64,000 bases of DNA from an uncultured Thermoleophilia bacterium. GTDB taxonomy: Bacteria; Actinomycetota; Thermoleophilia; UBA2241. The notes below the pieces were generated by a model. The model was not told the DNA's origin and made no database searches. It saw only the letters and a list, made by a program, of their open reading frames with translations. The stretch lies in contig CAVQLY010000017.1 of the NCBI GenBank assembly GCA_963713475.1, positions 37,606-101,605 on the forward strand. Reading direction: 5' to 3'. The position numbers and the translations under genes were made by a program. Position 1 is the first letter of the stretch; each line of letters opens with the position of its first letter. This document shows, piece after piece, positions 1 through 31,575 of the stretch.

Positions 1-831
1 CCGAACGGAGCCGGCAAGACGACGACGCTCCGTATCCTGCTCGGGCTGCTGGACAAGGACGGGGGCGGCGCTTCCGTCCTCGACCTCGATCCGTGGCGCG
101 ACGCGGCCGCCCTGCACAGGCGCCTCGCGTATGTGCCCGGCGAGGTCAGCCTGTGGCCCAATCTCACCGGCGGCGAAGTGATCGACCTGCTCGGTTCCCT
201 GCGCGGCGGCCTGGACCGGACGCGCCGCGACTCCCTGATCGAGAGGTTCCGGCTCGACCCGGCCAAGAAGTGCCGCGCCTACTCCAAGGGCAACCGCCAG
301 AAGGTCGCGCTGGTCGCGGCGTTCGCGTCCGGCGCCGAGCTGTACCTCCTGGACGAGCCGACGTCGGGCCTCGACCCGCTCATGGCCGCCGTCTTCCAGG
401 AGTGCGTGCGCGAGGCGCACGCGGCCGGCAGCACCGTCCTCCTCTCGAGCCACGTGCTCTCGGAGGTCGAGGCGCTGTGCGACCGGGTGACGATCGTCCG
501 GGCCGGTCGCACCGCGGATTCCGGCACGTTCCGGGAGCTCCGCCACCTCACGCGGACCACGGTCGTCGTCGAGACCGCCCGGCCGCTCTACGGGCTGCGG
601 ACGCTGCCCGGCGTGCACGACGCGCGCATCGACGCGACGCGGGCGGAGTTCTCCGTCGACCAGGACGACCTGAACCGCGTCCTCGAGCGGCTCGTGCGCC
701 TGGACGTGCGCTCCCTGACGACGTCGCCTCCGACACTGGAAGAGCTCTTCATGCGGCACTACCGGGACGCGGACGCCGCCGATGACGGCCTCCTCGTCGA
801 GCTCGAAGCCACCCTGGAGGCCGTGCGATGA
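1..831 (+). CDS. ABC transporter ATP-binding protein (5' partial; window begins inside Walker A)
   Basis: Frame-1 translation from nt 1: PNGAGKTTTL Walker A, signature KGNRQKV, Walker B LYLLDEPTSGLD, H-loop SSHVL; stop TGA 829-831 overlaps next ATG (ATGA coupling). Confidence 0.85.
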   Translation, partial: PNGAGKTTTLRILLGLLDKDGGGASVLDLDPWRDAAALHRRLAYVPGEVSLWPNLTGGEVIDLLGSLRGGLDRTRRDSLIERFRLDPAKKCRAYSKGNRQKVALVAAFASGAELYLLDEPTSGLDPLMAAVFQECVREAHAAGSTVLLSSHVLSEVEALCDRVTIVRAGRTADSGTFRELRHLTRTTVVVETARPLYGLRTLPGVHDARIDATRAEFSVDQDDLNRVLERLVRLDVRSLTTSPPTLEELFMRHYRDADAADDGLLVELEATLEAVR

Positions 832-2444
832 ACGTGCTCACCGGAACGGGAAGGCTCATCCGCCTCGCCCTGCGGCGGGACCGCTTCGTGCTCGCCGCCT
901 GGGTCATCGGACTGACCGTCTTCCTCGCGATGACCACGCACATGTCGGTCACGGGGCTGCCGACGCAGCAGGATGTGGTGACCGAGACGCAGTTCATGGC
1001 CGCCAACCCCGGCATGCGCCTGCTCAGCCTCTCCGCAGGCGCGAGCGTCGGCGCCTACGCGATGAGCCGGAGCTACCTGACGCTGGCCATCCTGGCGGCG
1101 GTGATGAGCGTCCTCACCGTGGTCCGGCACACGCGGAAGAGCGAGGAGCGAGGCTGCGACGAGCTCCTGCGAGCCGGCGTCGTCGGCTCCGCCGCGAGCC
1201 TGGCGGCGGCCGTCGTCGTCGCCCTGGCGGCGAACGTCGTGCTGGCGCCGCTGCTCGCCCTGGCCATGATCGCCAACGGACAGCCCGTGGCGGGCTCGTT
1301 CGCAGCGGGCGCGGCCATCGCCGCCGTAGGCGTGGCGTTCACCGGCGTCGCCGCCGTGACCTCACAGCTCTCCTCCACCGGGCGTGGGGCGAACGGCCTC
1401 GCCATGGCGGTGCTGGCGGTCTCCTTCGTCGTCGGCGGCGTCGGGAACATGCTCGGGAGCGTCGACGCGAGCGGGCTGATCGCCCTCCCCGCCTGGCCCA
1501 CCTGGCTGTCGCCGCTCGGCTGGGGATACCTGCTGCGCCCGTTCGGCGGCGACCACTGGTGGCTGCTCGCCCTGTCCGGCGCCTTCGCCGCCACGCTCAT
1601 CGTCGCCGCCGGCTGGTATGCCTCGCGACGCGACCTGGGCCGCGGCCTCGTCCCCGAGCGAGCCGGGAGTGACCGCGCGTCGCGCGCGCTCCGCGGGCCG
1701 TTCGGACTCGCCTGGCGTCTTCAGCGCTCCACCTTTGTCGCCTGGCTGGCCGGCCTCGTCGGCTTCGGCCTGGTCTTCGGGTCCGTCGCCGAGAGCGCGA
1801 CCGGCCAGCAGGGCAGCTTCCGGGAGTGGTATCAGCGCATGGGCGCGACGAGCGACATGCTGCACGCATTCGCGACTTCGATGGTCGAGATGGCCGGCAT
1901 GCTCGTCGCCATCTACGCGGTCCAGGCCCTGCTCAGGATGCGTGAGGAGGAAGCGCGTGGCCGGCTCGAACCCGTCCTCTCGGCGGCCGTCGGCAGGCCG
2001 AGGTGGATGGCGAGCTACGTGGGGACCGTGGTGCTCGGCGCCGTGGTGCTGCTCGTGGCCTTCGCGGCCGCGATGGCGCTCACTGCCGGGCACGCCTTGG
2101 GCGACACGTCCGGGCTGCTCCGCGAGCTGACCGGCGCCGCGCTGGCCCAGTTGCCGGCCGTCCTGGCCATCGCCGCGGCCGTGGTCGCGGCCGTGGCGCT
2201 GCTGCCGCGCCGGGCGGCCACGGTCTCGTGGCTGCTGCTCGCGGCGTCCGTCCTGCTCAGCCCGGTGTTCGGCACCAGCCTCGGGCTGCCGCGCTGGGTG
2301 CTGGACGCCTCGCCGTTCGCCCACCAGAAGGCGCCGGCGCTCGCGATCAGCGCGCCCGCGGTCGCCGCTCTGGCCGCGGTCGCTGCCGGCCTCATCCTCG
2401 TCGGTCTGGCGGCGTTCCGCCGCCGCGACCTGCTGCCCGGGTGA
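828..2444 (+). CDS. ABC-2 family transporter permease (538 aa, polytopic membrane protein)
   Basis: Translationally coupled to upstream ATPase; translation is dominated by long hydrophobic helices typical of ABC-2 exporter permeases. Confidence 0.65.
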   Translation: MNVLTGTGRLIRLALRRDRFVLAAWVIGLTVFLAMTTHMSVTGLPTQQDVVTETQFMAANPGMRLLSLSAGASVGAYAMSRSYLTLAILAAVMSVLTVVRHTRKSEERGCDELLRAGVVGSAASLAAAVVVALAANVVLAPLLALAMIANGQPVAGSFAAGAAIAAVGVAFTGVAAVTSQLSSTGRGANGLAMAVLAVSFVVGGVGNMLGSVDASGLIALPAWPTWLSPLGWGYLLRPFGGDHWWLLALSGAFAATLIVAAGWYASRRDLGRGLVPERAGSDRASRALRGPFGLAWRLQRSTFVAWLAGLVGFGLVFGSVAESATGQQGSFREWYQRMGATSDMLHAFATSMVEMAGMLVAIYAVQALLRMREEEARGRLEPVLSAAVGRPRWMASYVGTVVLGAVVLLVAFAAAMALTAGHALGDTSGLLRELTGAALAQLPAVLAIAAAVVAAVALLPRRAATVSWLLLAASVLLSPVFGTSLGLPRWVLDASPFAHQKAPALAISAPAVAALAAVAAGLILVGLAAFRRRDLLPG

Positions 2445-2559: not shown

Positions 2560-3135
2560 TCAGGCGGTCATGCACATCGCATCTTCGGCGTGCTGTGCGC
2601 AGTACGCCGCCAAGGACTTCTCGGACGCCCGCGAGCGACGACGGAAAGATGCCCATGCGGCGACGGCCACGAGCAGCACCGCGACGGCGATGCCGACGAT
2701 CACCCACACGCCGAAGCCGGTCGTCGCCGCGGTGGTCGACGGTGCGGCGAAGGCACCGGCCGCCGGCCGCGGAACGCCGCCCCTCGCACGCAACGAGAAG
2801 CCGTTGCCTGCGACCGTGGTCTCACCGGCGAGCGTCGCCGGACCGGCGAGAGCAGCCACGCCGCCGCGACCCTCACTGCCGGCTGCGGGAGTAGTCACGG
2901 CCACGACGGTCACCGACGCGTCTGCGCCGCCGCGGCCTTCGGTCCCTGCCGTCGGCGTCACCGCGATCGCGGCGGACGACGACGCGGAGACCCCGCCGCG
3001 GCCCTGGGTACCGGCCGCGGGAGTCAAGCTCGAGCTTGCCGCCAGTACCGCCTGCGCGCCGACGGCGATCGCGAGCAGTGCGAGGAGCGACAGGACGATG
3101 ATGCTGCCCAGCCTCTTGGGGGCTGTTGTCTTCAT
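2560..3135 (-). CDS. hypothetical exported repeat protein with C-terminal membrane anchor
   Basis: N-terminal signal peptide (MKTTAPKRLGSIIVLSLLALLAIAVGAQA), three TP[AT]AG[TS][QE]GRGG repeats, C-terminal hydrophobic helix followed by RRRSR; RBS AGGTGG before ATG at 3135. Confidence 0.45.
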   Translation of the reverse strand: MKTTAPKRLGSIIVLSLLALLAIAVGAQAVLAASSSLTPAAGTQGRGGVSASSSAAIAVTPTAGTEGRGGADASVTVVAVTTPAAGSEGRGGVAALAGPATLAGETTVAGNGFSLRARGGVPRPAAGAFAAPSTTAATTGFGVWVIVGIAVAVLLVAVAAWASFRRRSRASEKSLAAYCAQHAEDAMCMTA

Positions 3136-3500
3136 GATGCCACCTGACGTCTCGGTGCCGGCGCTGCAGCTCTGCCCGCCCCGGCACCCTTGCTGGTCGG
3201 CGGTCGCCCGCCTACCTCACCACTGAGGTCGTTCATAGCGTTTCCCCACTCGCGAGCGGTAAACACGATTGATACAGTGTTAACTCGGCGCCTCTCAGTG
3301 TCCTCCAGCATCTCGTGCGCGGCGCGGCGATGGGCCTGACGCTCGTGGCCCGCGGCGGCGACACCTTCTCCGGCGAGGCCTGCGTGGCGAGCGTCACCGC
3401 CACCGAGGACGGCGTGACGCTCGTCGTCCTGTCGGGTGTAGGACCACTGGTGTCGCAGTAAGCTCTCTCCCGAGTCGGGAGTCGTCGTCGGGAGCGGGGC

Positions 3501-4100
3501 TTGAAGAAGATCATCGCGGTCGTCGCACTGGTCGTCGCACTGGGGCTGTCGGCGGCCTCGCTGCTCGCCGGCTGCGGAGGCCGCCCAGCGACCTCCGGCA
3601 CGGAGCCGCCCGCTTCCCAGCCACCGCCGGCCGCCACGCCCATGACCGCATCCCCTGCCGCGCCTGTCGCGGTGCCCGCGATCTCGGACCGCGAGGGACC
3701 GTCCTGGAAAGGCGATCTCGGCGACACGGTCGAGATCGGCTGGTACGACCAGGCCCGCGGCGCCACCGCCGGCGAGCGGATCGCCGTGCTCGCGGTCCGG
3801 CGCGTCGCCGCGCCGGACGACAGCGGGCCATACGACTGGAAGTACGGCATCAAGGTGCGGCTCACCAGCATGGATGAGACGACCGCGCGCGACCCCATCG
3901 CCTACCAGTTCCTGCGCCTGACGCGTGGCTCGGACTGGGAGGACGGGATCGCCGGCCTCGGGAAGGGCGGGGGACCGGATCCCTCGACGGTCGGGAGGCC
4001 CTCGGTCGGCTGGCTCTACCAGTGGGCGGAGGAGGGCTTCAGGCCGACCGAGGTCGTGGTGCCGGTCGGCGCGTGGCAGGCCACGTGGTCTCTGGACTAG
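3501..4100 (+). CDS. hypothetical lipoprotein (TTG start)
   Basis: Lipobox LLAGCGG after hydrophobic N-terminus; GGGAG RBS 6-10 nt upstream of TTG at 3501. Confidence 0.5.
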   Translation: MKKIIAVVALVVALGLSAASLLAGCGGRPATSGTEPPASQPPPAATPMTASPAAPVAVPAISDREGPSWKGDLGDTVEIGWYDQARGATAGERIAVLAVRRVAAPDDSGPYDWKYGIKVRLTSMDETTARDPIAYQFLRLTRGSDWEDGIAGLGKGGGPDPSTVGRPSVGWLYQWAEEGFRPTEVVVPVGAWQATWSLD

Positions 4101-4183
4101 CCGGATCCCCGCAGGCTCTCCCGACCCGTGTTCACGGACCCGGGGCCAAGGGGGAAGAAGGTAGCACGCGAAAGGAGCGGACC

Positions 4184-4315
4184 ATGCCCGACGAGAAGCA
4201 GGATCAGCTGGACGAGATCGACGACGAGATGCCGGACATCGGCGGACCGCCGTGCGGAGACATCTTCGGCACGCCCGACACCATCATCGTCACCGACGAC
4301 ACGACCGGCGCATAG
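4184..4315 (+). CDS. small acidic protein, 43 aa (MPDEKQDQLDEIDDEMPDIGGPPCGDIFGTPDTIIVTDDTTGA)
   Basis: Strong RBS AAAGGAG 7 nt upstream of ATG 4184; the ORF-track ORF 4022..4315 has an implausible Gly/Arg N-terminal extension; convergent with MacB-like permease gene. Confidence 0.4.
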   Translation: MPDEKQDQLDEIDDEMPDIGGPPCGDIFGTPDTIIVTDDTTGA

Positions 4316-4355
4316 AGTGGACCGCGCCGGGAGCGCAGCTCCCAGGCGCCGGCCA

Positions 4356-5546
4356 TCACCCCGCGGAGGGCGATGGTCGGCTCCACCGACGAGGCCTGCG
4401 CCGCAGGCCCGATGCCGGCCAGCACGCCGACCACGATGGCGACGACGATGGCCAGGATGACGGCGGTCCAGAGAACACGGGCGTCACGTCGAGCCAGGAC
4501 CCGCCGGCGAACGCGCCGGCGAACCCTAGCGCAAGGCCGATGACGCCGCCGATCAGGCTGATCACCACGGCGTCCACGAGGAACTGGACGACGATGTCCC
4601 GGCGCGTGGCGCCGACGGCGCGGCGCACGCCGATCTCCCGCGTCCGCTCACGGACGGTGACGAGCATCACGTTGGCGACGCCGATGCCGCCGACGACGAG
4701 GCTGATGGCGGCGATGGCGGCCATCAGCCGCGTCAGCGTCTTGGTGCTCGAGGAGACGGCCGACGAGATCGAGCTCGCGTCGACGATCTGGAAGTCGTTC
4801 TGATCGCTCGTCGCGAGCCCGTGCTGTGCGCGCAGCGTGGTTTCGACGGCGGTGTCGAAGGTGTCCTTCGCGCCCGGCTCGGCCTGCACGCGCACCGTGG
4901 AGATGTCCGGGTGGAACGCGACCAGCCGGCCCTCGATCGCCGACAGCGGCGCGAGGATGCTCGAGTCGACCGACCCAAAGCTCATGCCGCCCTGCGAGGC
5001 CAGCACACCGACCACGCGAAAGCGGACGCCCCCGACGTTGATGGTCTGGCCGATCGCCCGCAGCGGCGAGATGCCCAGGTCGTCCACCGTCGAGGATCCG
5101 AGCACCGCCACCGGCAGGCTGTGGTCCACGTCGAACTGTGTGAAGAAGGTGCCAGCCTCGATCGTCAAGTGGTTGATGGCCTTGTACTGCGGGAAGGTGC
5201 CGACGACGCTGGCCTGCGCCGAGGTGGAGTCGGAGGTGATCGTGGCGTTCGTGTCGACCGTGTAGACCGTCGTCTTGACGCCGGGCGTCTCCCTGATCGC
5301 CGCGAGGTCGCTCTGCGTGATGGCCGTCGCGTTGGAGGAGAAGCGGCTCGTCTGCACGGTGACGGTGTCCGTGCCGAACGAGTTGAACCGGTCGACGACG
5401 GCCTTGGTCGAGCCGCCGCCGATCGAGGTGAGCGCGACCACGGCGGCGACGCCGATCACTATCCCGAGGATGGTGAGCACGGCGCGCAGCGGGTTGGCCC
5501 GCAGGCTCGAGAACGCGAGGCGCAGCGACTCGAGGAAGACGGTCAC
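4356..5546 (-). CDS. MacB/FtsX-family ABC transporter permease
   Basis: Periplasmic MacB-like domain; REIGVRRAVGATRRDIVVQFLVDA motif and TM helices. The last ~36 codons are out of frame: the overlapping frame encodes the expected final TM and PAxxAxxxEPTIALRG end. Two compensating 1-nt indels near 4462 and 4358. Confidence 0.8.
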   Translation of the reverse strand: MTVFLESLRLAFSSLRANPLRAVLTILGIVIGVAAVVALTSIGGGSTKAVVDRFNSFGTDTVTVQTSRFSSNATAITQSDLAAIRETPGVKTTVYTVDTNATITSDSTSAQASVVGTFPQYKAINHLTIEAGTFFTQFDVDHSLPVAVLGSSTVDDLGISPLRAIGQTINVGGVRFRVVGVLASQGGMSFGSVDSSILAPLSAIEGRLVAFHPDISTVRVQAEPGAKDTFDTAVETTLRAQHGLATSDQNDFQIVDASSISSAVSSSTKTLTRLMAAIAAISLVVGGIGVANVMLVTVRERTREIGVRRAVGATRRDIVVQFLVDAVVISLIGGVIGLALGFAGAFAGGSWLDVTPVFSGPPSSWPSSSPSWSACWPASGLRRRPRRWSRPSPSAG

Positions 5547-7201
5547 TGGCCGCCACCCGCAGGCGCGCCGGGCGGCATGCCGCCGCTCGGGAAGCCGCCG
5601 GCCGGCATGCCCTGGAGGACGCTGCCCGTCCCGCCTGACTGCGACGAGGTCGTCCCCGTGCGCGTGGCGCCGTCTGTGTACTGCCCGGTGACCACGGTCT
5701 CACCCTCGACGAGGCCGCTGGTGATCTCCGTGGAGGAGGCGGTCGCCATGCCGGTCTCGACCTGGCGGAAGACCGGCTTGCCGTCCTGCATCACGCGCAC
5801 GAACGACGTGCTCGAGCTGCCGGACACCGCGGTCGTGGGCACCAGGAGCACGTTCTCGCGCTGTTCGATGACGATGTCGAGGGTGCCCGTCATGCCGGAC
5901 TTGGCCAGCTCGGGCAGGTCCTCGGCGCTCACCGTGATGGAGTACTGCGTGGAGCTGGACGAGCCGGAGGCGGACGAGGACGACGCCGGCTCGCTCGAGA
6001 TGAAGCTGATCCTGCCGGTGAACGCGTCGCCGTCGTAGCCGTCGATGGTCATCTGCGCCTTCTGCCCGACCTTCAGGTCGGCGATGTCGGCCTGGCTGAT
6101 GAGCGCCTCCGCCGTGAGCCGGCTCGGCGAGACGACGGACGCCAGGGCGGTGCCCGAACTGACGTGGCTGCCCAGGTTGACGGTCCACGCGGTGAGCACG
6201 CTCCCGGCGGGCATCCAGACGAAGCGGCCGACGTCGAGGACGCCGGTCGCGCTCATCCCGTTGGCCTTCTGCCAGCGCTTGTAGGCCTTCTCTGTCGCGG
6301 AGGTGAAGCGGCCGTTGACCGCCTTCTTGTAGTAGCCCTCGGCCTTGAGGGCGCGCTGCAGGACGGCGACGTTCACGCGCTGCGAGCCGGAGGAGAGGCT
6401 CGTGGACAGGTTCTTCCAGAGCGGCGTCGGGCTCACGAAGGCGAAGACCGGCTTGCCGGAGACGAACAGCACGCGCCCGAGGGTCACCGGCTTGGCTCCG
6501 GCCGGGAGCGCGAGCCGCGTGACGACTCCGCTGAGGCTCGACGAGCTGGAGGAGCTCGTCGTCGAAGTCGTGGTAGAGGTCGAGCCGCCGGCCGCGGCGC
6601 CGCCTGAGCCGCCCGAGGGCTGGGCGCCGCCGGACTGCGACGGTGAGGGCGTGGGGAACGCCGTCTTCGTGGGCGTCGGCTTCGGCTTGGGCGTCGGCGT
6701 CGGCGTGGGCGTCGCGGTCTGAGTTGGGGACGGCGAGGGCGAGGGGCTGCCGGAGCCATCGCTCGCCTGCGGAACGTCGCTGGTATCCGGAGCGGCCACG
6801 GTCAGGGCGGCGTACGTGGTCGTCGTGTCGGCGACCACCTCATCGCCGACCGAGGCGACGCTGAGGCCGGACGACACGCTCGATGTGGTCGGAGTCGTGG
6901 ACGTCGAGCTCGAGGTGCTGCTCGACGAACTGGAGGACGAATCGCTGCTCGCCGCCCCGCCGCCGAGAGCGACGGACGTCGTACCGTTCTCGGAGCTCAG
7001 CGTGAAGTCGGCCTGCACGGTCTGCGAGATCGTCCCCGTCGTCGCCTTCGAAGTCAGGTAGTGGACGCTCGACGACTTGTCGCGGCCGAACCACATGACG
7101 CCCGCCACCGCGACTGCGGCAACGACGATCACGAAGATCCCGACGATCAGCCAGCGCTTGCGCTTCTTCATCCGTGCACTCCTCCGCTCAGCGCCGCGCA
7201 A
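5543..7201 (-). CDS. periplasmic adaptor (HlyD/MacA-like membrane fusion protein) with peptidoglycan-binding domain
   Basis: N-terminal TM anchor, Ser/Thr/Pro linker (TPTPTPKPKPTP), PG_binding_1-like segment (VLQRALKAEGYYKKAVNGRFTSATEKAYKRWQ), C-terminal beta-barrel adaptor-like region (LVPTTAV...GETVVT), Gly/Met/Pro-rich tail; 4-nt overlap with permease start. Confidence 0.65.
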   Translation of the reverse strand: MRGAERRSARMKKRKRWLIVGIFVIVVAAVAVAGVMWFGRDKSSSVHYLTSKATTGTISQTVQADFTLSSENGTTSVALGGGAASSDSSSSSSSSTSSSTSTTPTTSSVSSGLSVASVGDEVVADTTTTYAALTVAAPDTSDVPQASDGSGSPSPSPSPTQTATPTPTPTPKPKPTPTKTAFPTPSPSQSGGAQPSGGSGGAAAGGSTSTTTSTTSSSSSSSLSGVVTRLALPAGAKPVTLGRVLFVSGKPVFAFVSPTPLWKNLSTSLSSGSQRVNVAVLQRALKAEGYYKKAVNGRFTSATEKAYKRWQKANGMSATGVLDVGRFVWMPAGSVLTAWTVNLGSHVSSGTALASVVSPSRLTAEALISQADIADLKVGQKAQMTIDGYDGDAFTGRISFISSEPASSSSASGSSSSTQYSITVSAEDLPELAKSGMTGTLDIVIEQRENVLLVPTTAVSGSSSTSFVRVMQDGKPVFRQVETGMATASSTEITSGLVEGETVVTGQYTDGATRTGTTSSQSGGTGSVLQGMPAGGFPSGGMPPGAPAGGGQ

Positions 7202-7226
7202 ACCCGCCGGCGTTCACCTCGGGCCC

Positions 7227-8168
7227 TCACTGGAAGCTCCCGCCGGATTGGCCGTCACCCGTCTGCCCGCCCTGCTGCGGGAGCGGCATGCCGCTCTGTC
7301 CGCCGCCGCCTGGGAACCCCTGGAACGACTGCAGGTAGACGATGTTCTCGCCCTCGTCCAAGCCGGATACGACCTCGGTCTGCGCGCCCGACTGCCGGCC
7401 GACGGTGATGGTGCGCGTCTCCGTCTTGCCGTTCGCAATGACCTGGACGGTCGCCGAGCTGCCGCTGCCTTTGACGGCCGCCGTGGGGACGAGGATGACG
7501 TCGGCGGCGAGGACCTTGACCTCGATCCGCGCGAAGCCCGTGGATTTCGTCGTCACGTTCGCCGGGAGCTCGTCGAGAGCGATGGTGGCGGCCGCGGTCC
7601 CGTCCGCGTTCGTGGTGACGTCCGTGACCGTGCCGGGCGCGCCGCCGCGGTCACCCTGACCGGGACCGCCCGGGAACCCGCCCTGGGGCATCGGCATGCC
7701 GCTGGCGCCCGGCTGAGGCATGCCGCTGCCCTGCGGCACAGGCATGCCGCTCTGCCCGCCCTGCGGGACGGGCATGCCGCTGGCGCCGGGCTGAGGCATG
7801 CCGCTGCCTTGCGGGACCGGCATGCCGCTCTGCGAGCCGGAGAAGAAGAGCACGGTGGCGGTCTGGCCGGCCGCGACTAACGCCGCGTTCTGGGCGTCGA
7901 TCGTGGCGACCACGACCGTCTTGCCGCCGGCCTTCTCCACCGTCGCGGCGCCCATCACGGACTGCGTGAGGTCGCCGCGTGTGGCCTTGGCCAGCACCTG
8001 GATGACGGTCGGCGTCGCGCCGGCCGCCGGGGTATCGCTCGCGCTCGAGCCGCCGCAGCCGGCGGCGAACGCGGCGAACGCCACGAGGGCTAGGCCGGCG
8101 AGGAGCGCCGCTGCGGCCCCGCGGGCGTCGCGCATGCGGCGTGGTCGGCGGGTCTGGAGTGGGTTCAT
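7227..8168 (-). CDS. lipoprotein, adaptor-like beta-barrel protein with GMPxPQG tandem repeats
   Basis: Lipobox FAAGCGG; internal repeats SGMPVPQGSGMPQPGA x ~3.5; C-terminal region (ILVPTAAVKG...GENIVYL) resembles efflux adaptor beta-barrel domain; overlaps ATPase stop by 4 nt. Confidence 0.5.
   Translation of the reverse strand: MNPLQTRRPRRMRDARGAAAALLAGLALVAFAAFAAGCGGSSASDTPAAGATPTVIQVLAKATRGDLTQSVMGAATVEKAGGKTVVVATIDAQNAALVAAGQTATVLFFSGSQSGMPVPQGSGMPQPGASGMPVPQGGQSGMPVPQGSGMPQPGASGMPMPQGGFPGGPGQGDRGGAPGTVTDVTTNADGTAAATIALDELPANVTTKSTGFARIEVKVLAADVILVPTAAVKGSGSSATVQVIANGKTETRTITVGRQSGAQTEVVSGLDEGENIVYLQSFQGFPGGGGQSGMPLPQQGGQTGDGQSGGSFQ
7665..7850 (-). repeat. intragenic tandem repeat (~24/48-bp units, catgccgctg...) encoding GMP[VQM]PQG repeats
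   Basis: Repeated ggcatgccgct[ggc]gcc / cctgcgg blocks visible directly in DNA 7665-7850. Confidence 0.7.
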
Positions 8169-8911
8169 CGGTGTGCCTCCGCGGCCTGGGAATGGTAGTC
8201 GTGCAGGATGCCGTCGCCGAGGACCAGGCGCCTGTCGGCGTGCTCGGCGACGTCCTCTTCGTGCGTGATCATGACGATGGTGCGGCCCTGGTCGTGCAGC
8301 CGGTCGAGCAACTCGAGGACCTCGCCGGTCGCCTGGAGGTCGAGGTTGCCGGTGGGTTCGTCGACGAGCAGGACCTCGGGGTCGCCCACCAGGGCGCGAG
8401 CGATGGCGACCCGCTGCATCTGGCCGCCCGAGAGCTCGTTGGGGTCGTGGTCGGCGCGGTCGGCCAGGCCGACCATCTCGAGCGCGTCGGCGGCCCGCTT
8501 CAGCCGCTCCGAGCGACGCATGCCCCGGTAGACGAGCGGAGTGGCGACGTTCTCGAGCGCCGTCGTCCTCGGAAGCAGGTTGTGGAGCTGGAAGACGAAC
8601 CCGAGCAGCCGGTTGCGCACGCGCGCTCTGCCGGTGTCGTCGAGTTCGTGGACGTTCTGGCCGGCGAGCAGGTAGGTGCCGTCGTCGGCGCTATCGAGAA
8701 GGCCGAGGACGTTCAGCAGCGTCGACTTGCCCGAGCCCGAACGCCCCGTACAGGCGACCCACTCGCCGCGCACGACCTCGAGGTCGAGGCCTTTGAGCAC
8801 GGGGACTTCGATCGCACCACGCCTGTAGGTGCGGACGACGCCGTGCGCGTCGAGGACGATCTCCGCCTCGTGCGGCGTTGCTGTCATCTCCCCAGACGTC
8901 GGCCCCATCAC
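8165..8911 (-). CDS. ABC transporter ATP-binding protein (MacB/LolD-type)
   Basis: Walker A GRSGSGKST, signature LSGGQMQRVAIARAL, Walker B LLVDEPTGNLD; first gene of minus-strand operon ATPase-lipoprotein-adaptor-permease. Confidence 0.85.
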   Translation of the reverse strand: MMGPTSGEMTATPHEAEIVLDAHGVVRTYRRGAIEVPVLKGLDLEVVRGEWVACTGRSGSGKSTLLNVLGLLDSADDGTYLLAGQNVHELDDTGRARVRNRLLGFVFQLHNLLPRTTALENVATPLVYRGMRRSERLKRAADALEMVGLADRADHDPNELSGGQMQRVAIARALVGDPEVLLVDEPTGNLDLQATGEVLELLDRLHDQGRTIVMITHEEDVAEHADRRLVLGDGILHDYHSQAAEAHR

Positions 8912-9035
8912 TCTCCTCCATCACAAGCACCCGATGGAGTCTCCCAACCGCGGCTGGGATGTTGATGGGACTGGCCTGAGATTCAGCTGAGAGCGACGCT
9001 CGGGCGCCGGCGCGAAGGTCGGTCTCCGCGTGAGG

Positions 9036-9970
9036 CTACTGCCGCTGCAGCCACTTGGCGACGGCGACCCCGGCTCTCGCCCCATCGCCGGCGGCGATGA
9101 TGACCTGCTTGCCGAGCTGGTCCGTGACGTCGCCGGCGGCGAACACGCCGGGGCATCGTCGTCATGAGGTTGCGATCGACCTCGATCTCGCCCGACTCGT
9201 TCACCGGCACGAGACCGCCGGTGAGCTCCTCGGCCGGGATCGAGCCCGTCTCGATGAAGACTCCGTTCACCGGAAGCGTCACTTCGCGCTCGGAGGCGTC
9301 CCGCAGCCGTCACGCCGGTGACGCGCTCTTCCCCCTCGATGCTCGTCACCTGAGACTCCATGCGCAGCTCCACCCGGGGAGCGGCGGCAAGTCTGTCCAT
9401 CAGCGTCGGGGACGCCCTCAGCTGCTTCTGGTCGCAGACCACGGTGACCTCGGCGTCGAGGGCCGCGAGCTGGAGCGCAGCCTCGGCCGCGGACTCGCCC
9501 GGACCGACGACCGCGACCCGCTGCCCGCGGAAGAACGCGGCGTCACAGGTCGCGCAGTAGCTGATGCCGCGCCCGACCAGTTCCTTCTCACCGGGCACGG
9601 CGAGACGTGACGGAGCGCGCCCCGTGGCGATGATCGCGGCGCGCCCGTTCAGTGACAGACCCTCGCGCGAATGGACCTCGAATCCTCCGTCAGACGGCAT
9701 CAGCGCGTCGGCATGCTGCCCGGGGAACGTGTCGACGTCGAACCTGTCCACGTGGTCGCGGAAGTGACGCGCCAGTTCGCCACCGGAGATGGCCGCGAGC
9801 CCAAGGTAGTTGTCGATCTGGCCGGCCCACTGCGCCTGGCCGCCGAGTTCAACGGCGACGACAGCCGTGGTCAGGCCCTGGCGGGCCGTGTAGACGGCGG
9901 CCGCCAGGCCGGCCGGGCCGCCACCGATGATGACCACGTCGTAGAGGTCTCTCGGTCGCTGCTCCGCCAT
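9036..9970 (-). CDS. trxB: thioredoxin-disulfide reductase (apparently frameshifted twice)
   Basis: N-terminus MAEQRPRDLYDVVIIGGGPAGLAAAVY, CATC redox motif (ISYCATCDA), second NAD(P)H GxGxxA motif (VAVVGPGESAAEAA). The C-terminal third (VNGVFIETG..., PGVFAAGDVTDQLGKQVIIAAGDGARAGVAVAKWLQRQ*) is recovered in two other frames; indels near 9285 and 9160 (ccgggg run). Confidence 0.7.
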
Positions 9971-10046: not shown

Positions 10047-11183
10047 CTAGGCCACCAGCGGCAGGAGCGCCGGCGAGCCGGCGAGCTCGGCCATGAGATC
10101 GCTCGTGCGCAGGATGCGATCCACCCTCGCGGCGGTGGTGCCCGCCGTGTACAGCGGCTGCTCTTCATGGGAGTCGTGGCCGGCGGCGCTGAACAGCCCT
10201 TCGCAGATGCAGAAGAAGTTCTCGTTATCGTGCTTGGCGGCGCACTTGGTGAACCGCCCGTCCGCGTCCTTGAAGAGCACGTAGCCTTTGGTGCATCTCG
10301 GCGGGCGGGCTCGCACCAGCGCCTCCTGGTACATCGGAGACTCGCGGAGCACGCGGAACGGCAGGCCGCAGGGCGAGCCGGGCGCGTTGGCCACGACCAT
10401 GTCTTGAGGGCGTGCCCGCAGGACGGCCGCCTTGTAGGCCGGAGATGCGCTGCTCTCCTCGGTGGCGAGGAAGCGCGTCCCCATCTGCACGCCGTCGGCC
10501 CCGAGGGCGATGAAGCGGCGGATGTCCTCGTGCGAGTAGACGCCGCCGGCGACGATCACCGGCAGGTCGCCGTGCGCCATGGCCACTTCTTTCACCGGCG
10601 GCAGCAGCCGCTCGAGGGTGTTCTCCTCGAGGTCGACCTGGTCGGCGCGGAAGCCGAGGTGGCCGCCGGCCAGAGGGCCTTCGAGCACGACCGCGTCCGG
10701 GCGGGCGCGCAGACGCTCCCAGCGCCGGCAGATGATCTCCAGCGCCCGGGCGGACGAGACGATCGGGATCAGCGCGGTGTTGCGCGCCGGCTGCACGGAC
10801 GGCAGCGAGAGCGGGAGGCCGGCGCCCGAGACGATCGCGTCGGCGCCGGCGTCGATGGCCGCGCGCACAGAGGCGACGAAGTCGCGCTGAAGCGCCACCA
10901 TGATGTTGACTCCGGCGAAACCCCCGCGAGCCTTGGCGGCCTCCACTTCCAGGCGCACGGCCTCGTAGATGCCCACTTTGCGGCCGAGGCGTTTGGAGAC
11001 GATCCGGTCGAGACCCGCACTGGAGACCAGGCCCAGACCGCCTGCGACGGCGACGGCGGACGCCAGCGGAGAAAGGGACACGCCGACGCCCATTCCACCT
11101 TGGAAGATCGGCAGAGCGAGTTGCATGCCCTTGAGGGCGAGGAGCGGAAGCGAGGAAGGATCGACTAACAAGACTAAAATCAT
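10047..11183 (-). CDS. nitronate monooxygenase (NMO) / enoyl-ACP reductase FabK-like FMN oxidoreductase
   Basis: LPIFQGGMGVGVS FMN-binding N-terminus, ...VVLEGPLAGGHLG, VIVAGGV motifs typical of NMO family; start uncertain (ATG 11183 is followed by TTA/ATT codons unusual for this GC; ATG at 11126 is an alternative). Confidence 0.65.
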   Translation of the reverse strand: MILVLLVDPSSLPLLALKGMQLALPIFQGGMGVGVSLSPLASAVAVAGGLGLVSSAGLDRIVSKRLGRKVGIYEAVRLEVEAAKARGGFAGVNIMVALQRDFVASVRAAIDAGADAIVSGAGLPLSLPSVQPARNTALIPIVSSARALEIICRRWERLRARPDAVVLEGPLAGGHLGFRADQVDLEENTLERLLPPVKEVAMAHGDLPVIVAGGVYSHEDIRRFIALGADGVQMGTRFLATEESSASPAYKAAVLRARPQDMVVANAPGSPCGLPFRVLRESPMYQEALVRARPPRCTKGYVLFKDADGRFTKCAAKHDNENFFCICEGLFSAAGHDSHEEQPLYTAGTTAARVDRILRTSDLMAELAGSPALLPLVA

Positions 11184-17722: not shown

Positions 17723-17766
17723 GAGACCGGCCTCGCGGGCCGGTCTCACCAGTGACTCCCCGCCGG
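17723..17766. repeat. leader module A copy 2 (GAGACCGGCCTCGCGGGCCGGTCTC + ACCAGTGACTCCCCGCCGG)
   Basis: Aligned with 17004..17047; hairpin arms co-vary (compensatory changes keep the stem). Confidence 0.6.
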
Positions 17767-17841
17767 TGTGCGGTGGCCGCGTGCAGCCGCCGGCGGATCG
17801 ACGCCTCCCACGTTCTGATTATGCCCACTCGACCCATCGGT

Positions 17842-31498: not shown

Positions 31499-31575
<77 letters not shown>

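Follow-up and report, generated by a model that had tools for sequence, protein, structure and literature searches.

The locus described here probably combines a wall-anchored pump that is typical of its clade with a real miniprotein gene, tied to the pump by neighborhood synteny and not as its cargo, and with an upstream lipoprotein gene that is a strain-specific insertion. It lies in a window of 64,000 nt (the whole stretch of DNA analyzed) from the genome of an uncultured member of the Thermoleophilia (Actinomycetota; contig CAVQLY010000017.1, positions 37,606 to 101,605, forward). About a dozen contexts with usable flanks, phylogenetically close to each other, were compared with it. A previous sequence-only reading had described six ORFs, and all six were recovered where it had placed them, although the small ORF and the permease stop lie 40 nt apart and not the 41 nt it had counted.

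The pump operon

Four genes on the minus strand, spanning 4356-8911, encode an ATPase, a lipoprotein adaptor, a long membrane-anchored adaptor with a PG_binding_1 domain and a MacB_PCD/FtsX permease. Their coordinates and translations show start/stop overlaps of 4 nt at 8165-8168 and 5543-5546. The four genes are translationally coupled in a single operon that encodes a type VII ABC envelope pump of the monoderm MacB/YknXYZ type, and the proposal of a MacB-type exporter was borne out by the Pfam and NCBIfam domains found on the ATPase, the permease and the adaptors.

The first gene of the operon (8165..8911, minus strand) encodes an ABC ATPase of the YknY or MacB-NBD type (Pfam ABC_tran, 5.5e-32). 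Its best NCBIfam match is the NBD region of MacB (1.2e-66), followed by LolD (1.8e-66) and DarD, and it belongs to the MacB/LolD/FtsE subgroup expected of a type VII ATPase. The permease (4356..5546, minus strand) is YknZ-like, with matches to MacB_PCD (1.5e-35) and FtsX (2.4e-16) in Pfam and to MacB (5.7e-54) in NCBIfam, and it has the type VII arrangement of an extracytoplasmic MacB_PCD domain between TM1 and TM2 and an FtsX domain at the C terminus. The NBD and permease are encoded by separate genes and are not fused as they are in E. coli MacB.

The FtsX match on the window permease ends at position 69 of the 120 in the profile, and the final ~35 codons of the ORF are out of frame. Alignment with the loci L001 and L012, the latter a sister contig with 99.15% identity, mapped single bases missing relative to L012 at 4469, 4362 and 4359, and this comparison indicates that the three deletions are assembly errors. 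The FtsX match is therefore truncated by errors at the 3' end of the gene; the corrected permease has 397 aa, equal to its intact orthologues, and its true stop is still at 4356. Two further indels, at 9156 and 9309, are putative errors as well.

The two adaptors

Two different adaptor-family proteins had been proposed, one with a transmembrane anchor and PG_binding_1 and one a lipoprotein, and both were confirmed. The long adaptor (5543..7201, minus strand) is a membrane-anchored YknX/MacA-like protein with Pfam matches to HlyD_3 (9.3e-14), HlyD_D23 and PG_binding_1 (3.5e-11), an NCBIfam match to RND_mfp (1.2e-25) and a PDB sequence match to MacA (2.3e-13). The ATG at 7171 is the more likely start than 7201, since the resulting product of 542 aa agrees with a database protein of 100% identity (P0006). 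In the AF2 model a transmembrane helix (residues 13-37) and a disordered S/T/P linker (82-219) are followed by beta strands (224-255), the helices of PG_binding_1 (272-312), further beta strands (326-356), a barrel (361-425) and a membrane-proximal domain (437-508).

The best Foldseek matches of this model are to MacA (9qgy_G at 5.8e-12, 5nik_D and 4dk0), and the Foldseek probability is 1.00 against MacA, AcrA, MexA, CusB and BesA. The lowest rmsd, about 7 A with a TM-score on the target of 0.42-0.45, is to BesA, which has no hairpin. With lipoyl, beta-barrel and membrane-proximal domains, the long adaptor is a member of the HlyD/YknX/MacA membrane fusion protein family. No coiled-coil hairpin is present in the AF2 model, where the predicted PG_binding_1 helices occupy the position of the alpha-hairpin. 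A tblastn search of plasmids with the long adaptor, made to find annotated actinobacterial examples, gave one weak proteobacterial match.

The second adaptor (7227..8168, minus strand) is a lipoprotein of 313 aa with the lipobox FAAGC. Its NCBIfam matches, to RND_mfp (8.1e-11) and CzcB (6.7e-11), cover residues 177-278, its PDB sequence matches are to MacA (4dk1 at 1.8e-05, also 3fpp and 5nik), and its orthologues bear RND-MFP_C, CzcB_C and YknX_C. These matches identify the beta-barrel and membrane-proximal domains of a membrane fusion protein, presumably preceded by an N-terminal lipoyl half. The protein has no alpha-hairpin and carries a Gly/Met/Pro/Gln-rich repeat in its middle. The GMPxPQG repeat noted earlier is real: Tandem Repeats Finder placed the SGMPxPQG units at 7677..7833 (minus strand), with a period of 78 in 2.0 copies (89% matches) and a nested period of 24 in 4.6 copies.

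The pump in related Thermoleophilia

The combination of two adaptors with a peptidoglycan-binding module had been called unusual, a view that the related genomes do not support. The order of ATPase, adaptor of ~310 aa, PG_binding_1 adaptor and permease recurs in all related Thermoleophilia loci whose operon is intact. The four-gene operon is present in L010, L013/L017, L015, L019 and the P0204 contig, and also in L001, where it is fragmented by frameshifts and still recognizable. Among the long-adaptor homologues listed, 120 of 120 carry PG_binding_1 (PF01471) together with YknX-type domains, and the architecture is therefore typical of the clade. The form with PG_binding_1 in place of the hairpin and an additional lipoprotein adaptor thus represents the normal state of this pump in Thermoleophilia.

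Comparison with known systems and proposed mechanism

The closest parallels are YknXYZ of Bacillus subtilis and B. amyloliquefaciens and Spr0693-0694-0695 of Streptococcus pneumoniae, which likewise combine an ATPase, a MacB_PCD/FtsX permease and a membrane-anchored adaptor in one monoderm operon. The split between ATPase and permease is that of YknY/YknZ and Spr0694/0695, and the adaptor is in each case peptidoglycan-associated, with the pump presumed to act at the outer face of the membrane. Unlike those systems, the present operon has two adaptor genes and not one, PG_binding_1 in place of the alpha-hairpin, and long disordered S/T/P and G/P segments, and it has no YknW-like membrane protein. 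E. coli MacAB-TolC is similar in that MacA is the best PDB match of both adaptors and MacB the best NCBIfam match of both the ATPase and the permease. It differs in its fused NBD and permease, in its outer-membrane factor (OMF) and in its TolC-docking hairpin; the ORF list and Pfam showed no OMF gene among the genes of this operon, the adaptors are without a docking hairpin (for the long adaptor, in the AF2 model), and in these two respects the operon departs from a tripartite MacAB-TolC system.

By analogy with the characterized family, a cytoplasmic ATPase dimer would bind and hydrolyze ATP, and the four-helix FtsX/MacB permease would pass the resulting movement to the extracytoplasmic MacB_PCD domain. 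Such mechanotransmission is how MacB-type pumps work, with no movement of substrate across the cytoplasmic membrane (PMC5985334). Relatives of the pump suggest that substrates, likely amphipathic antimicrobial peptides, toxins or lipids, would be expelled from the outer membrane face or wall zone through a channel formed by the two different hairpin-less adaptors. PG_binding_1, at the position of the hairpin that docks onto TolC in Gram-negative bacteria, would fix the tip of this channel in the peptidoglycan; Gram-positive adaptors are known to bind peptidoglycan (PMC5985334).

In a hetero-oligomer of the TriA/TriB kind, the short lipoprotein adaptor probably alternates with the long one. Precedents for two adaptors are TriABC and the fused two-MFP protein DSY0927 (PMC4338810): both TriABC-OpmH of P. 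aeruginosa and DSY0927 of Desulfitobacterium hafniense need or encode two different adaptors. TriC, unlike the present pump, is an RND transporter in a diderm. DSY0927 has one half without a coiled coil and belongs to an ABC-type transporter in a Gram-positive (PMC4338810), but its two adaptors are fused, whereas here they are separate genes whose joint use is suggested by analogy. BesA of Borrelia burgdorferi, the lowest-rmsd match, is consistent with the lack of a coiled-coil hairpin in the long adaptor, although BesA has nothing at the hairpin position and here the three-helix PG_binding_1 domain is inserted. The role of adaptors in bacteria without an outer membrane has been flagged as an open gap in reviews (PMC4338810), and a natural two-adaptor, wall-anchored MacB system is a lead that could clarify it.

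The miniprotein family

The small ORF (4184..4315, plus strand) is a monocistronic gene for an acidic protein of 43 aa that belongs to a conserved Thermoleophilia family. The strong ribosome binding site proposed for it is present: the Shine-Dalgarno sequence AAGGAG lies at 4172-4177, 6 nt ahead of the ATG. The protein contains 10 Asp, 3 Glu, 1 Lys and one Cys, with 13 acidic residues in 43. The family core is D-[DE]-M-P-x4-5-P-C-G-D-I-F-x6-8-V-T-D-A-D, and M1, M16, P17, P23, C24 and G25 are invariant in an alignment of 69 sequences. The window copy has one such module, and a subfamily has two tandem core-like modules.

No credible Pfam or NCBIfam match was obtained in searches that included the 69 members and the two-module forms, and no signal peptide, hydrophobic stretch, membrane segment or DNA-binding segment was found. 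AF2, using the 69-sequence alignment, gave no secondary structure (pLDDT 65, pTM 0.16), and the miniprotein is predicted to be intrinsically disordered. We envisage a cytoplasmic, disordered and very acidic protein that would function through a short linear motif with a Cys, of which each protein has one or two copies; its most likely mode of action is to bind a partner protein or a metal. With its invariant Cys motif, this well-conserved and uncurated family of acidic, predicted disordered miniproteins is a lead in its own right.

Synteny of the miniprotein gene and the pump

In the window, L012 and L001 the small gene and the permease converge; in L010, the P0204 contig and L007 the small gene is transcribed away from the ATPase, with roughly 170-260 nt between the two. 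It lies one gene away from the operon in L019 and five genes away in L017. In the clade designated 'MPDEK', the small gene and pump remain no more than 5 kb apart, in at least three arrangements. The co-occurrence with MacB systems that had been suggested for checking therefore holds in part, since the small gene neighbors the pump in several loci, but it persists without the operon and is absent near the operon of L015.

A regulatory or accessory role deserves attention because the two are neighbors in one clade through three arrangements, seen in the window, L012, L001, L010, the P0204 contig, L019 and L017. The miniprotein would then be a cytoplasmic accessory or regulator of the pump that binds the ATPase or the transcription factor of the operon, in a YknW- or AcrZ-like but soluble role, and such a role would explain why the two genes stay neighbors; the divergent placement upstream of the ATPase in L010, the P0204 contig and L007 fits it, and small accessory components of adaptor-dependent pumps are on record (PMC4338810, PMC5985334). 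We nevertheless regard this role as unlikely. The small gene is intact in loci where the operon is deleted (L005, next to an NMO gene, and L006, next to an MFS gene), where it has decayed (L007, with the ATPase and an adaptor stub, and L002-4, with a 29-aa ATPase fragment) and where it was never nearby (the distant members L021 and L022, with no operon within 10 kb of the small gene). Conversely, the orthologous operon of L015 has no copy of the small gene within 6 kb. NMO and AEC-permease genes lie near the small gene about as often as the pump does, and these and the MFS gene of the neighborhood are equally syntenic. The miniprotein also lacks a DNA-binding segment and the transmembrane helix of AcrZ/YknW-type modulators, and AF2 shows no helix in it.

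In our preferred reading, the proximity of the small gene to the pump would reflect their common membership in a chromosomal neighborhood that is conserved, though much rearranged, in one Thermoleophilia sublineage. A layout of an exporter plus a small peptide can thus be mere synteny. The proximity in the 'MPDEK' clade could nevertheless reflect a functional tie, as a purely neutral model does not demand it. In its strongest and rather improbable form, such a tie would mean that monoderm MacB-type pumps have a soluble partner of a new kind, the miniprotein, which would dock on the ATPase or a regulator and gate the pump; if true, this would account for the persistence of the gene next to the operon despite several rearrangements in a single Thermoleophilia lineage.

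Readings independent of the pump or as its cargo

An AfsS-like function unrelated to the pump, in which short repeats would bind a large regulator and so adjust transcription, seems quite unlikely. Repeats of Streptomyces coelicolor AfsS contain D-N-H-M-P-x-x-P, and members of the miniprotein family, predicted to be disordered, have one or two short acidic motifs with D-D-M-P-A-P. Binding of AfsS-like proteins to AfsR requires their 2-5 short repeats (PMC10832544). A gene for a large adenylate-cyclase/AAA_16 regulator lies at most two genes downstream of the small gene in L007 and L019, but this regulator is missing from most contexts, including this window, and no SARP gene was found in the window. 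Compared by description only, both are small actinobacterial proteins with no recognizable domain and short acidic repeats; the miniprotein differs in its Cys-Gly-Asp-x-Phe core, its occurrence in Thermoleophilia and the lack of an adjacent SARP regulator, and any homology would be hypothetical. We know of no AfsS counterpart for the invariant C-G-D-x-F element.

The sequence-only reading had compared the layout with peptide or bacteriocin exporter modules and had considered the miniprotein a possible substrate. A role as an exported peptide, a bacteriocin or the precursor of a RiPP, with the MacB system as its exporter or immunity pump, is very improbable and already largely refuted. In its favor, the protein is small, the window copy contains GG and its gene converges on an ABC exporter, part of the family has a tandem pair of core-like modules, and MacB-type systems handle peptide toxins such as SDP, AS-48 and STII (PMC5985334). 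The position of GG is, however, variable across the family (GG, GA, GR, GN, ERR, EVH or EQA), and conservation is concentrated in mid-peptide and not in a leader. The absence of a signal peptide or hydrophobic stretch also speaks against export, as does that of a C39 peptidase domain from the ABC proteins, for which Pfam matched only ABC_tran-type ATPase families, MacB_PCD and FtsX; both marks of a double-glycine system, a conserved GG cleavage motif and C39 on the transporter, are therefore lacking. No radical-SAM, ATP-grasp, lanthipeptide or other maturase, and no enzyme class at all, is common to the contexts compared, as would be expected beside a RiPP precursor gene; radical-SAM genes are sporadic, or lie beside operons with no miniprotein gene in the flank covered. 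MacB-type pumps offer no transmembrane path for a substrate, and their known peptide substrates exit via Sec (PMC5985334). The gene is, moreover, retained where the pump is absent or decayed.

Evidence that the small ORF is a gene

The conservation of the small ORF, for which a homologue search had been proposed, is clear: its family comprises 112 clusters at 90% identity (E<=0.01), with 17 representatives at the 50% level, and 13 of 13 loci have the ATG and a Shine-Dalgarno sequence. Variable sites are distributed 16/16/26 over codon positions 1/2/3, with a median dN/dS of 0.44. Taken together, these comparisons point to a genuine, conserved gene. It is very unlikely that the small ORF is open merely by chance or mirrors, on the opposite strand, a longer C terminus of the frameshifted permease, a view that comparative genomics refutes. 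In the window, an alternative minus frame with the true permease C terminus is open to 4204 and spans the small ORF, and GC3 cannot separate the two because they share third codon positions. Against this view, the permease of L001 and L012 stops 30-41 nt short of the small ORF, stops interrupt the codon-phase-matched antisense frame at five of the six loci compared (L002 alone is free of them), substitutions pile up at plus-strand third positions, and the small ORF is also found with unrelated genes downstream. The alignment with L001 and L012, together with these stops, rules out a permease that extends over the small ORF in another frame. A putative distant homologue in the Acidimicrobiia (L008) proved to be a false positive, the match lying in the wrong frame of another gene.

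A GC-rich hairpin lies between the convergent small ORF and permease at 4317..4356 (MFE -28.7 kcal/mol, z -4.28), with none of 200 shuffles equally stable, and is likely a bidirectional terminator that lacks a U tract. Homologues elsewhere do not all share this terminator: six other loci gave z values of -1.4 to +0.5, and only the window beats its shuffles. A promoter and terminator consensus scan of 3100-4500 returned nothing relevant, as expected because of the 70% GC content.

The upstream lipoprotein gene

The ORF upstream of the small gene (3501..4100, plus strand) encodes a lipoprotein with the lipobox LLAGC and no Pfam or NCBIfam family. It had been paired with the peptide gene, a pairing that fails on its distribution: its tblastn matches are confined to L012, a contig of the same species, and no other locus gave one. 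It thus appears to be strain-specific and not a conserved partner of the small ORF. In L001, the place of the lipoprotein, immediately upstream of the small ORF, is taken by a membrane-protein homologue.

The small ORF and its relatives

The 43-residue acidic ORF at 4184..4315 on the plus strand has an AAGGAG six bases ahead of its ATG and is followed by a hairpin (-28.7 kcal/mol, z -4.28) far more stable than shuffled sequence. A direct search returned five relatives, and profile searches returned 17 among 1.84 billion representatives and 112 among the 90% clusters; the ORF, for which the sequence-only reading had proposed a homologue search, is thus conserved. Across 69 aligned miniproteins M1, M16, P17, P23, C24 and G25 are invariant and D14, D26, F28, V36 and T37 nearly so, and the consensus reads D-[DE]-M-P-x4-5-P-C-G-D-I-F-x6-8-V-T-D-A-D with acidic, variable ends on both sides. 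An ATG and a purine-rich Shine-Dalgarno sequence are present in 13 of the 13 loci with DNA, variable sites number 16, 16 and 26 at codon positions 1, 2 and 3, the median pairwise dN/dS is 0.44, and in five of six loci inspected, stop codons interrupt the antisense frame whose third codon positions coincide with those of the ORF. We conclude from these sequence comparisons that the small ORF represents a genuine gene of an unannotated family, and Pfam and NCBIfam gave no family match. AlphaFold predicted no secondary structure for the miniprotein (pLDDT 65, pTM 0.16), and, as it lacks a hydrophobic segment, we presume that it is disordered and resides in the cytoplasm.

Members of one subfamily, 65-71 residues long and of metagenomic origin (P0131, P0132, P0139, P0154, P0172, P0184, P0202, P0204 and P0223), carry a second module, D-D-M-P-A-P-x2-4-[HR]-C-G-D-[PQ]-F-…-H-V-T-D-A-D, suggesting that the functional unit is a motif of ~28 residues. 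Given one or two of these Cys-containing linear motifs, the most plausible role of the miniprotein is to bind a metal or a protein partner. A candidate parallel is AfsS, one of the small repeat proteins that dock on a large regulator, and we offer as a lead only that the miniprotein might act in this way. In two loci, the opposite strand downstream of the miniprotein gene encodes a large adenylate/guanylate-cyclase + AAA_16 (STAND-type) regulator; its gene directly adjoins the small gene in L007 (10161..13808, minus strand), a 298-aa gene intervenes in L019 (11165..14593, minus strand), and the window has no such gene.

The pump operon

The G+C content of the window is ~70%, and each of the six ORFs called by the sequence-only reading was found where it had been placed. 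Four minus-strand genes make up the pump: an ATPase (8165..8911; Pfam ABC_tran, 5.5e-32), a 313-aa short adaptor (7227..8168), a long adaptor (5543..7201; HlyD_3 9.3e-14, HlyD_D23, PG_binding_1 3.5e-11) and a permease (4356..5546; MacB_PCD 1.5e-35, FtsX 2.4e-16). The short adaptor had no match in Pfam, matched RND_mfp (8.1e-11) and CzcB in NCBIfam and MacA chains in a PDB sequence search, and is taken to be a lipoprotein adaptor because it has a lipobox; the SGMPxPQG units within this protein form a genuine tandem repeat (7677..7833). Start and stop codons overlap by four bases at 8165-8168 and at 5543-5546, which points to a single translationally coupled operon. MacB was the best NCBIfam match of both the ATPase (1.2e-66) and the permease (5.7e-54), and MacA the best match of both adaptors among solved structures. 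The Pfam, NCBIfam and PDB matches thus agree with the proposed MacB-type operon with two adaptors, one bearing PG_binding_1.

The FtsX match of the permease ends at profile position 69 of 120, and the canonical C-terminus (…VGVLAGIGPAAQASSVEPTIALR…) is found in a different minus-strand frame, which stays open across the small ORF. Alignment to the related contig L001 and to L012, a 99.15%-identical contig of the same species, showed that the match is interrupted because the window misses single bases at 4469, 4362 and 4359, and ruled out an extension of the permease across the small ORF; by this alignment the true permease end is 4356, without overlap. The TrxB-like (thioredoxin-reductase-like) gene (8921..9970) is split over three frames because the window has additional bases at 9156 and 9309, and is intact, at 310 aa, in L012 and L006. 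On these alignments both breaks are assembly indels and not pseudogenes. L012 has different indels of its own (its positions 3354 and 6443); such differing single-base indels are a typical signature of unpolished long-read metagenome assembly, so other apparent frameshifts in the window should be distrusted.

The architecture had been thought unusual, a view that the homologues do not bear out. PF01471 and YknX-type domains occur in all 120 long-adaptor homologues among the matches listed, and the order ATPase, ~310-aa adaptor, ~540-aa PG_binding_1 adaptor and 397-aa permease recurs in L010, L013/L017, L015, L019 and the P0204 contig, and in L001 but fragmented; operon-bearing loci are Thermoleophilia wherever a taxon is named. 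MacB-like pumps dependent on adaptors have been described in Gram-positives, and YknX binds peptidoglycan (PMC5985334); pumps with two different adaptors are known from TriABC, and a Gram-positive ABC system with a fused two-MFP protein is a further precedent (PMC4338810). The pump is a member of an already known kind of system.

In the AlphaFold prediction for the long adaptor, which drew on 40 homologues, a TM helix (residues 13-37) and a disordered Ser/Thr/Pro linker (82-219) are followed by beta strands (224-255), the PG_binding_1 helices (272-312), further strands (326-356), a beta-barrel (361-425), a membrane-proximal domain (437-508) and a disordered Gly/Pro tail. The model contains no coiled-coil hairpin, whose position is taken by the peptidoglycan-binding domain. 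Foldseek matched it to MacA, AcrA, MexA, CusB and ZneB at probability 1.00, with the lowest rmsd to BesA, a hairpin-less adaptor. From the family precedents, the pump would work by ATP-driven mechanotransmission acting at the membrane's outer surface, and its two adaptors would form a wall-anchored channel.

Relationship of the small gene to the pump

The suggested co-occurrence of peptide and MacB system holds for several loci and fails in others. The small gene is convergent with the permease of a complete operon in the window, L012 and L001, divergent from the ATPase of such an operon in L010 and the P0204 contig, and one gene (L019) or five genes (L017) away from the operon elsewhere. In L007 an ATPase ORF (8888..9769, minus strand) continues into the lipoprotein adaptor for that protein's first ~40 residues and is followed directly by NMO, and L002-4 retain a 29-residue ATPase fragment (212..298, minus strand, in L002); the decayed operons of L007 and L002 adjoin intact miniprotein genes. 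No operon stands beside the small gene in L005, L006 or L011, where the next gene is NMO (window counterpart 10047..11183), an MFS transporter and a TrkA-C-like gene, respectively, or within 10 kb of it in L021 and L022, the distant 'MSDEP' members, and the orthologous operon of L015 has no copy of the small gene within 6 kb. Genes for NMO, the AEC permease, MFS and DrrAB are found in this neighbourhood with about the same frequency as the pump. The simplest reading of these gene orders is that the adjacency reflects a conserved, heavily rearranged chromosomal neighbourhood of one sublineage, within which the small gene appears to outlive the pump. Because the small gene stays near the pump through three arrangements, we give a low probability to the miniprotein being an accessory or regulator of the pump. 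The peptide or bacteriocin module proposed earlier found no support, and we reject the miniprotein as pump cargo: the GG is not conserved across the family, and there is no signal peptide on the miniprotein, no C39 peptidase domain on the pump ABC proteins in Pfam and no maturase common to the small-gene contexts. MacB-type pumps offer substrates no path through the membrane, and the peptides that they handle reach the outside by Sec (PMC5985334).

Neighbouring genes and RNA elements

The lipoprotein (3501..4100), which matches no family, is present only in the window and the same-species contig L012, so the supposed lipoprotein-peptide gene pair is not a conserved one. More conserved is its neighbour at 2560..3135 on the minus strand, with homologues in the same neighbourhood of L001, L006, L010 and L019; it encodes a 191-aa protein, secreted or anchored by its C-terminus, that bears TPAAGT(E/Q)GRGG repeats and gives a weak match of GPS-CTERM type. 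The plus strand at 133..2444 encodes a DrrA-type ABC ATPase, truncated by the start of the window, and a 538-aa permease without a Pfam match; in L017 and L018 this pair stands immediately before the miniprotein gene. Elsewhere, two c-di-GMP-II-GAG riboswitch aptamers (RF03169; 17010..17098 and 17729..17817, both on the minus strand and ~700 nt apart) score 67.4 and 52.8 bits against a gathering score of 40, and a tRNA gene lies at 31501..31574 on the minus strand (Rfam RF00005, 74.2 bits).
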